Shown here piece by piece: positions 3,296 through 18,138 of a stretch of 64,000 nucleotides of DNA. Position 1 is the first letter of the stretch. Every line of letters begins with the position of its first letter. The position numbers were made by a program, and so were the translations under genes. Under the pieces are notes generated by a model. It had not been told where the DNA came from and did no database searches. It was given only the letters and a program-made list of their open reading frames with translations. The stretch is from an uncultured Chloroflexia bacterium (GTDB taxonomy: Bacteria > Chloroflexota > Limnocylindria > Limnocylindrales > CSP1-4): NCBI GenBank assembly GCA_963838115.1, contig CAWIPU010000004.1, positions 394,153-458,152 of the forward strand. The letters are read 5' to 3'.

Positions 3296-4540
3296 GTGCC
3301 GACGGTGGTGCTGGTGGGAACACTCGACACCAAGGGTGCGGAGCTGCGCTATCTGCGCGATCGCATCATCGAGGCCGGCTGCGAGGTGACCCTGGTCGAC
3401 GCCAGCGTGCGCCGCAACGATGTGGACGCCAGCATCAGCGCCGATATCGATGCCGACCAGGTCGCAGCTGCGGCCGGTGAGGACCGCGCGGCACTGGCGG
3501 CGGCGGCCGACCGCGGCCGGGCCGTCATGGCCATGGCACGCGGCGCGACCGAGATCGTGCGGCAGCTGCACGCGAAGGGTGGTCTGGATGGCATCGGCGG
3601 GTTGGGCGGCTCAGGCGGCACGTCGATCGTGGCTGCGGCCATGCGGGCCTTGCCGGCGGGCGTCCCCAAGCTGCTGGTCTCGACGATGGCCTCAGGCGAC
3701 ACGCGACCCTATGTGGGCACCTCGGACATCGCCATGCTCTACCCCATCGTCGACATCGCCGGCATCAACCAGCTGTCCGAGCGGATCCTGGCCAACGCGG
3801 CCGGGGCCTTGGCGGGCATGACCCTGGCGGCTGCTCGTTTCGAATCAACACGGCCTTCGCGACCCGTCGTAGCCGCCACGGCCTATGGTGTGACCACGCC
3901 TTGTGTCGAGGTCGCCCGCGACTGGCTCGAGGCACGCGGCTACGAGGTGCTGGCCTTTCACGCCACCGGCTCCGGTGGCCGGGCGATGGAGTCGTTGATC
4001 CGCTCAGGCCTCATCAGCGGCGTCCTTGACATCACCCTCAGCGAGATCACCGATGAGATCGTGGGTGGCGCGTTGAGTGCCGGCCCAGAGCGCCTCGACG
4101 CTGCGGCGGAGGTCGGTATCCCCCAGGTCGTCTCGCTGGGTGCAGTCGAGATGGTCACCTTCGGTCCACCGGATTCGGTGCCCAGCTACTACCAGGATCG
4201 TCTCCTCTATCGCCACAACGACAGCATCACGCTCATGCGCATCTCGGCTGCGGAGTCGGAGCGCCTGGGTCAGGAGATCGCAGCCAAGCTGAACCGGGCG
4301 ACGGGTCCGGTGAGCGTGTTCATCCCCAAGGCTGGCATGTCATCGCTGTCGGTCCGGGGCGCGGTCTTCCATGACCCAGTGGCGGATGTCGCGCTGTTCG
4401 ACGCGCTGCGCGCCTCCCTCGCCCCAAGGATCGACCTCGTGGAAATGGGCACACACATCAACGACCCTGCCTTCGCACGGGCGATGGCCGAGCGGCTGTA
4501 CGCGTTCTGCAGCGCCAGGCGCGGGGTCGAACGACCCTAG
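3296..4540 (+). CDS. UPF0261 family protein (N-terminal domain of Tm-1-like proteins)
   Basis: 414-aa ORF starting MPTVVLVGTLDTKGAELRYLRD, with GAGGEE RBS upstream of a GTG start. Its stop overlaps the convergent ABC gene stop (CTAG). Confidence 0.6.
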   Translation: MPTVVLVGTLDTKGAELRYLRDRIIEAGCEVTLVDASVRRNDVDASISADIDADQVAAAAGEDRAALAAAADRGRAVMAMARGATEIVRQLHAKGGLDGIGGLGGSGGTSIVAAAMRALPAGVPKLLVSTMASGDTRPYVGTSDIAMLYPIVDIAGINQLSERILANAAGALAGMTLAAARFESTRPSRPVVAATAYGVTTPCVEVARDWLEARGYEVLAFHATGSGGRAMESLIRSGLISGVLDITLSEITDEIVGGALSAGPERLDAAAEVGIPQVVSLGAVEMVTFGPPDSVPSYYQDRLLYRHNDSITLMRISAAESERLGQEIAAKLNRATGPVSVFIPKAGMSSLSVRGAVFHDPVADVALFDALRASLAPRIDLVEMGTHINDPAFARAMAERLYAFCSARRGVERP

Positions 4541-5634
4541 TCACGGGTCACGGATGCGGGCAGCGCGATGTCCTTGGCAGCCGCATCGATGCGCTCGGCT
4601 GAGATCTGCTCGCTGAAGTGGCAGGCCACACTCTGGCCGGGCGCGATCTCGCGCAGCTCGGGCCGCTCCGTGTCGCACTCCACGGGATCGCCCAGCTGCT
4701 CACGCAGCCAGCAGCGTCCCTTGAACCGGCAGCCGTCGATCGGGGCGACTGGAGACGGTACGTCACCCTTGAGGATGATGCGCTTGCGGCGTCGGGTGGG
4801 GTCCGGCTCGGGTACTGCCGTGAGCAGCGCGATGGTGTACGGGTGACGAGGGTCGGCGTAGAGCGTCTCGGAGTCGGCCAGCTCCACGATGCCGCCGAGA
4901 TACATCACGCCCACCCGGTCGCTGACGTACTGCACCACCGAGAGGTTGTGGGCGATGAACAGGTAGGTCAGATCGAACTCGGCCCGCAGGTCCAACAGCA
5001 GGTTGAGGATCTGACTCTGGATCGAGACGTCGAGGGCTGACACCGGCTCATCACAGACGATGAACTCGGGCTCCAGCGCGAGTGAGCGGGCGATGCCGAT
5101 GCGCTGGCGCTGGCCACCGGAGAACTCGTGTGGGAACCGTCTGGCATAGTCCCGTCGTAGGCCCACCCGCTCAAGGTAGTCGCCGATGCGCTCCTCGCGG
5201 ATGCTCCGGGTGCCCCAGCCGTTCTCCTTGTCCGCCTGAGCCAGGAGCCCCTCCCCGATGATGTCGTTGACGGGCATGCGCGGGTTCAGCGAGCCATACG
5301 GATCCTGGTAGATGATCTGGAGCTGGCGGCGCAACCGGCGCAGCTGCTCACTCGGAAGGTGGCTGATCTCCTGGCCGTGGAAGTAGACCCGTCCCCCGGT
5401 CGCCGGAAGCAGCTGCAGGAGGGTGCGACCGAGCGTCGACTTGCCGCAGCCCGACTCACCGACAAGGCCCAGGACCTCGCCCTTGGCCACCTTGAAGCTG
5501 ACGCCATCCACGGCCCTGACATCACCCACCTTGCGACGCAACACGCCCGCGTGGATGGGGTAGTACTTGTAGAGTTCGTCGACCGCGACCAGCGCCTCAG
5601 GCGCCTCGGGCTGCACCGAACCGTCCTGGGTCAC
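4537..5634 (-). CDS. peptide ABC transporter ATP-binding protein (OppF-type)
   Basis: [17 protein letters not shown] and [11 protein letters not shown]. The GTG start at 5634 overlaps the upstream gene's stop (GTGA), so the 431-aa ORF-track version is over-extended. Confidence 0.85.
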
Positions 5635-6746
5635 GTGTCGCCCTCCACGACGCTTCGGGCGCCCTTCGTCGACACCATGTCCGATGCAGGGGCCGCCGCG
5701 GTGGCTGCCGGCGCCTCGCCATAGAGCCAGCAGGCGACCTGCGTGTCGGCGACATCGTCCAGGCGTCGCAGCTCGGGGTCGTGCTGGGCACAGGGTTCGA
5801 AGCGCGCCGGGCAGCGGGGAGCGAAGTTGCAACCGACGGGCATGTTGAACGGATTGGGCACCGAGCCCTTGATGACGCTCAGGCGCACACCGCGGCGCGC
5901 GCGCGTGGGCATCGATTCGAGCAGGCCACGGGTGTAGGGATGCCTGGGCGATGAGAAGATCTGCTCGACCGGCCCGTCCTCGACGACTCGGCCTCCGTAC
6001 ATCACCGCGACATGGTCGACCATCTCGGCGACGACGCCCAGGTCATGCGTGATCAGCATCAAGGCCATGCCCAGGTCTGCCTGTGAGGCACGGATGAGGT
6101 CGAGGATCTGGGCCTGGACCGTGACGTCGAGCGCGGTCGTGGGCTCGTCGGCGATGAGCATCTTGGGCTCACACGAGAGGCCCATGGCGATCATGGCCCG
6201 CTGGCGCATGCCGCCCGACAGCTCGTGGGGATACTGCTTGATGCGGCGTTCGGGCGAGCTCATGCCGACCTGGGCCAAGGCCGCGATGGCACGCTCGTTG
6301 GCCTCGGCCTTGCCCACGTGCAGGTGCTCGGTGATGGCCTCGGAGATCTGGAAGCCGATGGTGAAGACCGGGTTGAGGCTGGTCATCGGCTCCTGGAAGA
6401 CCATGGCGATCTCGCCGCCGCGGACGCTGCGCATCTCATCCTCGGAGAGCCCCAGGAGATCCCGGCCTTCGAGCCGGATCGAGCCCGATGGGATCCTCGC
6501 CGGAGGCATATCCAGCAACCGCATCACGGTCAGTGCCGTGACGCTCTTGCCGGAGCCGGACTCGCCGACGATGCCGATGGACTTGCCCCGCGGGAGGCTG
6601 AAGTTGACTCCGTCGACCGCCCTGACGGTGCCATCCATGACGTCGAAGTAGGTGCGCAGGTCCTCGACCACGAGCAGGTCCGCGGTGCGGTCGTGGGGAG
6701 CGGTCGAGCCCGACATCGGAGCGGCGCCCGCGTGCGGCTCAGTCAT
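5631..6746 (-). CDS. peptide ABC transporter ATP-binding protein (OppD-type)
   Basis: GESGSGKS, LSGGMRQR and [11 protein letters not shown]. The ATG at 6746 lies just after the upstream permease's stop; the alternative start at 6767 overlaps by 29 nt. Confidence 0.85.
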   Translation of the reverse strand: MTEPHAGAAPMSGSTAPHDRTADLLVVEDLRTYFDVMDGTVRAVDGVNFSLPRGKSIGIVGESGSGKSVTALTVMRLLDMPPARIPSGSIRLEGRDLLGLSEDEMRSVRGGEIAMVFQEPMTSLNPVFTIGFQISEAITEHLHVGKAEANERAIAALAQVGMSSPERRIKQYPHELSGGMRQRAMIAMGLSCEPKMLIADEPTTALDVTVQAQILDLIRASQADLGMALMLITHDLGVVAEMVDHVAVMYGGRVVEDGPVEQIFSSPRHPYTRGLLESMPTRARRGVRLSVIKGSVPNPFNMPVGCNFAPRCPARFEPCAQHDPELRRLDDVADTQVACWLYGEAPAATAAAPASDMVSTKGARSVVEGDT

Positions 6747-17556: not shown

Positions 17557-17559
17557 CGC

Positions 17560-18138
17560 TCAGGCCAGGCCGTCCAGCAGCCCAAAGCCGGCCAAGGGCA
17601 GGGCGCGCGCGACGATGTCACGCTCGGTCGCGAACTGCATCACCGCTTCTGCTTCTTCCAGCGCGAACCAGCGCACCTCCTCGAACTCGTGATCGTGGCC
17701 CGAGAGGTCGCCACCGGTCGGCTCCATCAGGAAGTACTGCACGGTCTTGTCGATGCGACGGCCGTCGCATACGAAGCGGTAGTGGATGTCGCCGATGGTG
17801 TCAAGGATGCACACCCGCAGGCCGGTCTCCTCGCCGACCTCGCGCAAAGCGGTCTGCTCGGGAGTCTCGTCGCCGTCCGGCGTGCCCTTTGGGAGGGACC
17901 AGACGGAGCGACGGCGATCGCGGCGGCGGCGGCCAAGCACCAGTTGGGGCCCGTGACTGCCGTCACGGATGACCACGCCACCAGCGGAAAAGGCCCGCTC
18001 GATCGGTAGGTCGAGATCGGGCCGCGACCGGATAGGGGCCACCTCAGCGGAGCGGCGGTACCGCGCGGAACGAGCGTGGGTCGCGGAGCGCCCGGCGCGG
18101 TGTGGACCAGTGGATCGATGATGGTCGGATGAGCGCAC
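17560..18138 (-). CDS. NUDIX hydrolase; the true start is probably internal (GTG near 18040)
   Basis: Nudix box GX5EX7REVGEETG (…PEQTALREVGEETGL…). Its stop lies 3 nt upstream of the gcvT start. Confidence 0.75.
   Translation of the reverse strand: MRSSDHHRSTGPHRAGRSATHARSARYRRSAEVAPIRSRPDLDLPIERAFSAGGVVIRDGSHGPQLVLGRRRRDRRRSVWSLPKGTPDGDETPEQTALREVGEETGLRVCILDTIGDIHYRFVCDGRRIDKTVQYFLMEPTGGDLSGHDHEFEEVRWFALEEAEAVMQFATERDIVARALPLAGFGLLDGLA

Follow-up and report, generated by a model that had tools for sequence, protein, structure and literature searches.

A substrate-binding protein gene coupled to a split-P-protein glycine cleavage operon, ahead of an exchangeable Opp/Dpp-type importer, in Limnocylindrales

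Glycine cleavage operons with a split P-protein, in the order gcvT-gcvH-gcvPA-gcvPB, occur in Bacillus and Thermus, among others. In operons for ATP-binding cassette (ABC) transporters, an excess of receptor over permease is usually obtained by means of a hairpin after the receptor gene. Replacement-type flexible genomic islands hold different cassettes in one chromosomal slot. Here, we analyzed 64,000 nucleotides of DNA from an uncultured Chloroflexia bacterium (assembly GCA_963838115.1, contig CAWIPU010000004.1, positions 394,153–458,152; this whole stretch is referred to as the window, and its positions are counted from its first letter). On the minus strand, the glycine cleavage genes gcvT, gcvH, gcvPA and gcvPB are followed by genes for two family-5 substrate-binding proteins (SBP1 and SBP2), two permeases and two ATPases, an array that the original prediction had read as a 13.6-kb operon running without a break from glycine cleavage into a peptide importer. 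We found that the coupling of gcvPB to the SBP1 gene is conserved and lineage-specific and is no chance feature of the window. The importer behind SBP1 has a predicted promoter and leader of its own, and is replaced by other cassettes in close relatives.

The two genes at the junction were assigned as follows.

13079–14641, minus strand: gcvPB, P-protein subunit 2 (NF003346, 720.4 bits; cut-off 441).
11025–13091, minus strand: SBP1, gene for a predicted SBP_bac_5 lipoprotein (Pfam SBP_bac_5, 4.5e-42, match in two stretches).

Each junction of the array was read directly from the sequence. The TGA stop codon of gcvPB (13081–13079) lies inside the SBP1 start region, which gives an overlap of 13 nt with the GTG at 13091, as had been predicted, or of 4 nt with an alternative TTG at 13082. 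Because the start codon lies inside or next to the gcvPB stop, translation of SBP1 would be coupled to that of the gcvPB end.

A scan of a genome collection yielded 45 related species-level loci, examined as 20-kb loci, of which 41 have usable DNA upstream of SBP1. All 41 showed the same gene order: an aconitase gene on the opposite strand, then DUF2520, NUDIX, gcvT, gcvH, gcvPA, gcvPB and SBP1. Synteny in relatives had been proposed as a check on the predicted link, and the gcvPB–SBP1 adjacency was kept at every locus where it could be read. Other public contigs, retrieved by way of homologues of GcvPB or SBP1 (L046, L049/L050 and L131–L133), had the identical gene order. From the gcvPB stop to the SBP1 start candidate, taken upstream of the conserved lipobox, the spacing was −13, −4 or +4 nt family-wide, and this spacing persisted down to SBP1 identities of 36–45%. 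The exceptions were a few loci with frameshifts or a failed lipobox search, mostly from long-read metagenome-assembled genomes (MAGs).

Outgroup loci were collected with a GcvPB profile. None of the 54 outgroup loci with at least 3 kb of sequence downstream of gcvPB had an adjacent SBP gene. At one outgroup locus (L051), an Opp operon was found 2.3 kb from gcvPB, beyond other open reading frames (ORFs) and a gene whose sequence suggests an ECF-type sigma factor. No SBP1-family gene away from gcvPB was seen in the loci examined, and an Opp-type cassette was near SBP1 in every case seen.

The related loci also place the host. All 45 come from Chloroflexota MAGs, labeled Ca. Limnocylindrales, 'uncultured Chloroflexia' (Danish soil), Anaerolineae/Anaerolineaceae or plain Chloroflexota, which does not agree with the host among the Actinomycetia that had been assumed originally. 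The split P-protein had been called atypical on that assumption; since the host is a member of the Chloroflexota, it is ordinary. Separate gcvPA and gcvPB genes were also present in 80 of 80 outgroup loci, usually in the order gcvT-gcvH-gcvPA-gcvPB.

At its C-terminus (window 13079–13115), GcvPB of Limnocylindrales ends in a conserved tail of the form (R/H)W.P(M/L).G(A/V)(E/D).PCP(Q/H/S/T). Outgroup GcvPB tails differ, and many hold Cys pairs (LNCxCG, LCC). Whether the PCP tail proves dual coding at the start of SBP1 was considered, and the tail was not taken as evidence for it; outgroup tails have Cys too, and the PCP tail is retained in L047 despite the absence of SBP1 there.

The second part of the array, from the end of SBP1 to the last ATPase gene, contains the following features.

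10990–11018, minus strand: sigma-70-type promoter, TAGACC-17 nt-TACAAT, 6 nt past the SBP1 stop codon (predicted).
10863–10989, minus strand: importer leader, ~130 nt, conserved and structured.
9021–10862, minus strand: SBP2, Sec-type secreted SBP_bac_5 protein (Pfam, 1.2e-45; signal peptide with an AMA/Q cleavage site).
8989–8950 and 8942–8921, minus strand: two GC-rich hairpins between SBP2 and permease B (minimum free energy −69.4 kcal/mol, z = −5.31).
7775–8884, minus strand: permease B, OppB/DppB-like (BPD_transp_1, 9.1e-43; best NCBIfam Opp4B, 250 bits; cut-off 450).
6739–7770, minus strand: permease C, OppC/DppC-like (OppC_N and BPD_transp_1; Opp4C, 296 bits; cut-off 350).
5631–6767, minus strand: ATPase D (Pfam ABC_tran and oligo_HPY).
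4537–5634, minus strand: ATPase F (Pfam ABC_tran and oligo_HPY).

The sequence TAGACC-17-TACAAT is the sole promoter-like match within 4000–19500. In 24 close loci both hexamers are kept and variation falls in the 5' half of the spacer, and in a distant clade the promoter has the canonical form TTGACA-17-TATAAT. The leader ends with AGAGGAGG, followed after ~10 nt by ATGAGTC, and has a strong ribosome-binding site; the SBP2 start ATGAGTC is kept in relatives. Promoter and leader are conserved together in 37 loci, for example at 12110–12285 in L019 and 12030–12202 in L025. An nhmmer profile of promoter and leader found exactly one copy per locus, in each case immediately ahead of the first SBP gene in the cassette (E values to 6.5e-47), and no second copy in the 64-kb window or in the loci. 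The leader stays with the importer in L049/L050 despite an inserted beta-helix gene, and in L047/L048, which have no SBP1, it comes directly after gcvPB.

The fold of the leader is conserved as well. Paired states accounted for 92.8% of cells, and nine pairs showed double-sided changes. The covariation score was reached by none of 500 shuffles, and register-shifted controls fell to 31–59% paired. In a 38-sequence alignment, the hairpin GCGAUC...GACGC kept three inner pairs through 10–12 double-sided changes. A small stem overlaps the ribosome-binding site, and the leader has an invariant GGGAG. Searches of Rfam 15 with the window leader and with the consensus-like L019 leader gave no match at E ≤ 10. 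These features make the leader a candidate for a new cis-regulatory RNA.

Two further structures bear on transcription through this region. In most relatives a stable hairpin separates the −35 element from the SBP1 stop; it is absent from the window, where the gap is unstructured (z = −0.1), so read-through from SBP1 would be possible there. After SBP2, none of 200 shuffles of the gap folded as well as the native sequence, and a long stem (roughly 11–18 bp) recurs with differing sequence in nine of nine relatives with the same cassette type as the window (type A, see below). A scan for intrinsic terminators gave one weak match on the wrong strand, below chance expectation, and T-tailed terminators seem not to be in use here.

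These results bear on the model of a single unbroken operon of 11 genes, from NUDIX to the second ATPase, dedicated to uptake and catabolism of glycine-containing substrates. All of these genes are co-directional with junctions of at most 162 nt, and in the window no hairpin separates SBP1 from the promoter, with only 2 nt counted ahead of the −35 element. Set against this are the clade-conserved promoter and leader in the 162-nt gap ahead of SBP2, the two strong hairpins in the 136-nt gap between SBP2 and the permease gene, the hairpin before the promoter in most relatives, the opposite-strand gene between SBP1 and the cassette in L049, and the replacement of all five importer genes by non-orthologous cassettes in close relatives. 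We therefore consider the single operon very unlikely. What stands of the idea that the glycine cleavage operon runs into importer genes is the gcvPB–SBP1 coupling; the absence of a break does not stand.

By Pfam content, the importer belongs to the Opp/Dpp type (PepT), with SBP_bac_5, two BPD_transp_1 proteins (one with OppC_N) and two ABC_tran plus oligo_HPY ATPases. It reached no equivalog cut-off for OppABCDF, DppABCDF, NikABCDE, GsiABCD, SapABCDF, CntABCDF or YejABEF; SBP2 scored 92.5 bits against Opp4A (cut-off 650). Three non-orthologous five-gene cassettes, types A, B and C, occur downstream of SBP1. In type A, the type of the window, the cognate receptor SBP2 is at least 69% identical and permease B 77–95% identical. 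In type B, the SBP is ~30% identical to SBP1 and permease B is 35–46% identical; in type C, the SBP is 30–37% identical to SBP2 and permease B is 48–57% identical. Cassette type was not in line with phylogeny: type B is present in L001 and L002, with SBP1 94–95% identical to that of the window, and type A in L003 (92%).

The window and L001/L002 are 89–90% identical in DNA down to ~11065–10975 and again from ~4505 leftwards, and between ~10975 and ~4505 they share only paralogue-level ATPase similarity. The exchanged module extends over ~4540–10975 in the window, with its counterpart at 12034–19709 in L001. The replacement is precise, with flanks of 89–90% DNA identity around permeases that are only 39% identical. 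At least about ten changes of cassette type were counted on a neighbor-joining tree of the flanking proteins, and a search of the rest of the 64-kb window gave no cassette of type B or C. Promoter, leader, ribosome-binding site and first codons are common to all three types, and for this reason the leader looks like the upstream recombination arm.

Two lineages show further arrangements at this site. In L047/L048 (10617–10808), gcvPB is followed by ~190 nt and then by the leader and a type-C cassette. In L049/L050, the gene for the beta-helix protein lies on the opposite strand at 12687–14288, between SBP1 and the cassette.

SBP1 homologues form a tight family of ~86 proteins at 37% identity or more, and the next match is at 29%. 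The N-terminus MPxVSL and the lipobox (V/A-S/G-A/G-C-L) align family-wide, which argues for GTG 13091 as the start and for SBP1 as a lipoprotein. In the window the lipobox reads LLLVSAC-L, with Cys26, and agrees with the pattern [LVI][ASTVI][GAS]C; the motif ACL/GCL was present in 26 of 27 aligned homologues in which the N-terminus is present, and in the loci. The deposited SBP1 protein (P0001, 647 aa) begins at an internal ATG, at window position 12968 rather than 13091, 41 codons late. P0001 therefore has no lipoprotein signal peptide, and its start looks mis-annotated.

The SBP_bac_5 match of SBP1 covers residues ~75–195 and 324–577, and is interrupted by an insertion.

12117–12509, minus strand: helical insertion of SBP1, ~130 aa (residues 195–325), all-helical, holding Cys245 and Cys254.

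An AlphaFold (AF2) model built with 31 homologues (pLDDT 84, pTM 0.81) showed the usual two-lobe fold plus helices H207–319, an insertion spanning roughly residues 200–320. No counterpart of the insert from the Protein Data Bank (PDB) appeared in the profile alignments shown. Used as a query, the insert gave 31 matches among 1.84 billion representative proteins; nearly all of these are in the same length class as SBP1 and have the insert in the same place, which makes them members of the same family. Six cysteines are conserved in the family, and, judging by their spacing, C158/C165, C245/C254 and C438/C531 could be disulfide pairs.

The closest solved receptors include NikZ/CcNikZ-II, AppA, YliB (GsiB), GbpA, HbpA, DppA, NikA and AccA, at 13–20% identity. 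Foldseek matches had E values of 6e-35 to 1e-26 and target-normalised TM-scores of 0.56–0.82, and a PDB profile search reached E values down to 3.8e-49. SBP1 stayed below the equivalog cut-offs, with 79.6 bits for nikA (393) and 51.1 for GsiB (594). At 13–20% identity and with these cut-offs unapproached, the ligand class of SBP1 is not inferable from its matches. A mapping of the DppA contacts Asp408/Arg355 onto SBP1 was dropped, as loop alignment is unreliable at this level of identity. In the type-B cassette, the SBP is paralogous to SBP1, at 31% identity over 572 columns, and has the helical insert as well; we therefore trace SBP1 back to a genuine transporter receptor.

This ancestry is relevant to the idea that SBP1 is a binding-protein-fold lipoprotein for sensing or cell-envelope biogenesis, comparable to mycobacterial LpqW, that acts independently of the importer. 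SBP1 lacks a permease of its own, its sequence varies independently of which permease type is next to it, it has a unique 130-aa helical insert and conserved cysteines, and LpqW is among its fold matches (rank 34). Its closest paralogue, however, serves a complete importer cassette as cognate SBP, the top fold and sequence matches are true transport receptors, and an Opp-type cassette is always near. A role outside transport thus appears quite improbable to us.

The genes ahead of gcvPB on the minus strand, in the order of their transcription, are as follows.

18378–19307, minus strand: DUF2520/Rossmann-like oxidoreductase gene (Pfam DUF2520, 3.8e-29; Rossmann-like, 3e-14).
18044–18361, minus strand: ORF105, a basic, arginine-rich ORF of 105 aa with fixed boundaries and codon periodicity.
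17560–18042, minus strand: NUDIX hydrolase gene (Pfam NUDIX, 7.4e-24).
16438–17556, minus strand: gcvT, aminomethyltransferase (NF001567, 426 bits; cut-off 300; TIGR00528, 354.7; cut-off 235.85).
15992–16372, minus strand: gcvH, lipoyl carrier (TIGR00527, 164.8 bits; cut-off 115.85).
14638–15987, minus strand: gcvPA, P-protein subunit 1, with a GTG start (NF001696, 559.8 bits; cut-off 364).

All genes named in the original prediction were present at the coordinates given there and all lie on the minus strand, in the order DUF2520, ORF105, NUDIX, gcvT, gcvH, gcvPA, gcvPB, SBP1, SBP2, two permeases and two ATPases; the first two extend the array farther upstream than had been described. The NUDIX gene had been drawn to 18138, which corresponds to the longest ORF. 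In most relatives a GTG or ATG lies 33 nt ahead of the conserved core, and the conserved GTG at 18042 is likely the true start. All four glycine cleavage subunits exceed their curated NCBIfam cut-offs, and the translations contain the lipoyl-lysine motif ESVKT (GcvH) and the PLP-lysine motif NLHKTF (GcvPB). The gene for the L-protein (dihydrolipoyl dehydrogenase) is not among the array genes; this protein is commonly shared among complexes, and its gene is often located elsewhere.

The position of the DUF2520 gene is identical in all relatives, and it is probably the first gene of its transcription unit. ORF105 keeps its start, its stop and its 318-nt length in the window and in 14 of 16 aligned relatives. 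Its diversity is highest at the third codon position (0.44, vs 0.22 at the first and 0.19 at the second), and it is among the independent gene calls for L046 and L047. A Pfam search with ORF105 gave no match, and its sequence features suggest a genuine small protein, as yet uncharacterised. A long non-coding leader at 18043–18377 was considered and rejected; the codon periodicity and the conserved ORF boundaries point to a protein gene.

Apart from the gcvPB/SBP1 overlap described above, the junctions of the array are the following.

DUF2520 / ORF105: gap of 16 nt.
ORF105 / NUDIX (GTG 18042): gap of 1 nt.
NUDIX / gcvT ATG: gap of 3 nt.
gcvT / gcvH: gap of 65 nt.
gcvH / gcvPA: gap of 4 nt.
gcvPA / gcvPB: GTGA overlap.
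SBP1 / SBP2: gap of 162 nt.
SBP2 / permease B: gap of 136 nt.
permease B / permease C: gap of 4 nt.
permease C / ATPase D: overlap.
ATPase D / ATPase F: GTGA overlap.

All junctions are thus overlaps or gaps of 1–162 nt, in keeping with the anatomy originally described, and from DUF2520 to SBP1 every junction is at most 65 nt.

We propose that the array consists of two transcription units, head to tail. Unit 1 would comprise DUF2520, ORF105, NUDIX, gcvT, gcvH, gcvPA, gcvPB and SBP1, and would yield the glycine cleavage enzymes together with the surface-anchored receptor SBP1 by translational coupling. Unit 2 would be an autonomous Opp/Dpp-type importer (SBP2, two permeases and two ATPases) with its own promoter and leader, in which the hairpins after SBP2 probably raise the receptor-to-permease stoichiometry. 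As a membrane-anchored extracytoplasmic receptor without a permease of its own, SBP1 would feed the adjacent importer, presumably by docking on the downstream permeases. The cell would then produce one uptake specificity together with the glycine cleavage enzymes and regulate the importer separately. We regard this role of SBP1, an accessory receptor for the adjacent importer that ties one uptake specificity to the expression of glycine cleavage, as the likeliest mechanism, at evenly balanced odds. A ligand that yields glycine, for example a Gly-containing peptide, is plausible and is not readable from sequence or fold. A more far-reaching version seems improbable: SBP1 would be a dedicated receptor for a glycine-yielding substrate, produced in stoichiometric amounts with GcvPB through translational coupling, and would fit any Opp-type importer in the slot, whose leader RNA, of a kind not described before, would sense a related metabolite. 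Receptor and catabolism would then be the fixed parts of a modular design, and the importer its swappable engine.

Several observations weigh against the accessory-receptor proposal. Its main weakness is that SBP1 proteins 94–95% identical stand beside permeases only 39% identical, which is awkward for specific docking. SBP1 matched receptors for nickel, peptides, glutathione, opines, haem and sugars alike, and neither sequence nor fold gave a pointer to glycine or to any particular ligand. The glycine riboswitch RF00504 had no match at gathering score in the window and none at E ≤ 10 in 8700–19500 and 17980–19500; no other Rfam family matched upstream of the gcv genes or at the gcvPB/SBP1 junction. 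The L047/L048 lineage is without SBP1, which was lost or never present there. Co-transcription and use of the internal promoter are deduced from sequence. Finally, the whole neighborhood is collinear in the clade, aconitase and DUF2520 included, and because of this synteny conservation alone does not prove a functional link.

This last point leads to the main rival explanation, frozen synteny: an ancestral importer region of the Limnocylindrales happened to sit behind the gcv genes, with no link through a substrate. SBP1 would then be a duplicate of a cassette SBP that is co-expressed through genome compactness, and its ligand would be generic peptides or something unrelated to glycine. Consistent with this, aconitase, DUF2520, ORF105 and NUDIX hold their positions equally well and have no known tie to glycine cleavage, overlaps of stop and start codons occur at other junctions of the array too, SBP1 is paralogous to the type-B cassette SBP, and no substrate-specific family cut-off was reached. 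However, the region downstream is recombinationally active, with at least about ten swaps, one gene insertion and one SBP1 loss, and the gcvPB–SBP1 junction has nevertheless stayed within ±13 nt at SBP1 identities as low as 36–45%, in a family found nowhere else. On this evidence, frozen synteny is possible and, in our view, somewhat unlikely; we retain the accessory-receptor proposal as the working interpretation.

Flanking the array are a divergent aconitase gene (from 19455) and a convergent UPF0261 gene.

3296–4540, plus strand: UPF0261 gene, whose 3' end overlaps that of ATPase F by 4 nt.

The UPF0261 gene follows a second, convergent Opp-type ABC operon, which consists of a permease gene and ATPase genes at 1113–1934 and 2142–3269 (100–4540, plus strand, with the UPF0261 gene); this operon is likewise kept in most relatives. 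At the other boundary, the divergent region between the aconitase gene (acn) and DUF2520 contains a tandem 15-nt repeat, TATACGACCGGGCCC (19322–19353), in two copies here and three in L001. Beside it (about 19360–19440) lies an element of ~35 nt, GTCGGCTCCTGACGGGAGTGCCCGCCTCGGGTCG, that is conserved clade-wide. The palindromic GTATAC in this element reads as a −10 sequence, TATACT, towards aconitase, and the element may therefore be the aconitase 5' leader. In the same region of L002 (about 3700–3780), several tandem copies of GGTCGGTCGAGTGTG were found, with a single copy in the other loci printed.

If the coupling is functional, this would be the first glycine cleavage operon with an uptake receptor of its own. 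It would also suggest that Limnocylindria (Ellin6529-type), which are abundant in soil and uncultured, use a glycine-yielding nutrient not recognised so far, and this could aid their cultivation. Judged on titles and abstracts, the literature searches gave no account of gcv genes coupled in an operon to a binding-protein gene; no publication on glycine cleavage in Limnocylindria or Ellin6529 was found, and glycine is not mentioned in the one genomics paper on Limnocylindria that was retrieved. Regardless of the ligand, the locus shows a transporter module repeatedly exchanged behind a fixed promoter and leader, provides a candidate new cis-regulatory RNA, and corrects the public annotation of the SBP1 start.

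Compared with known split-P-protein operons, the locus has the same four genes in the same order, all above their NCBIfam cut-offs. It differs by DUF2520, ORF105 and NUDIX in front, by the coupled SBP gene behind, by having no detectable glycine riboswitch and by the clade-specific C-terminal tail of GcvPB. Opp/Dpp/Nik/Gsi importers of the PepT class with several SBPs per permease resemble it in the family-5 SBP, the two permeases and two oligo_HPY ATPases, the tandem SBP genes ahead of one permease set and the hairpin after an SBP gene. The locus differs from them in that it has no equivalog match to Opp, Dpp, Nik, Gsi, Sap, Cnt or Yej, that the first SBP is proposed to belong to another transcription unit than the transporter, and that the module exists in three non-orthologous versions. 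With NikZ/CcNikZ-II, AppA, GsiB (YliB), GbpA and DppA, SBP1 shares the two-lobe fold of cluster-C binding proteins; it differs from these by its low identity (13–20%), at which the ligand class is not transferable, and by the 130-aa insert, the conserved cysteines and the lipid anchor. The exchange itself resembles replacement-type flexible genomic islands, since flanks of 89–90% DNA identity in close relatives enclose a non-homologous five-gene module. Unlike in such islands, the cassettes here are functional analogues, all of Opp type, placed behind one conserved promoter, leader, ribosome-binding site and set of first codons.

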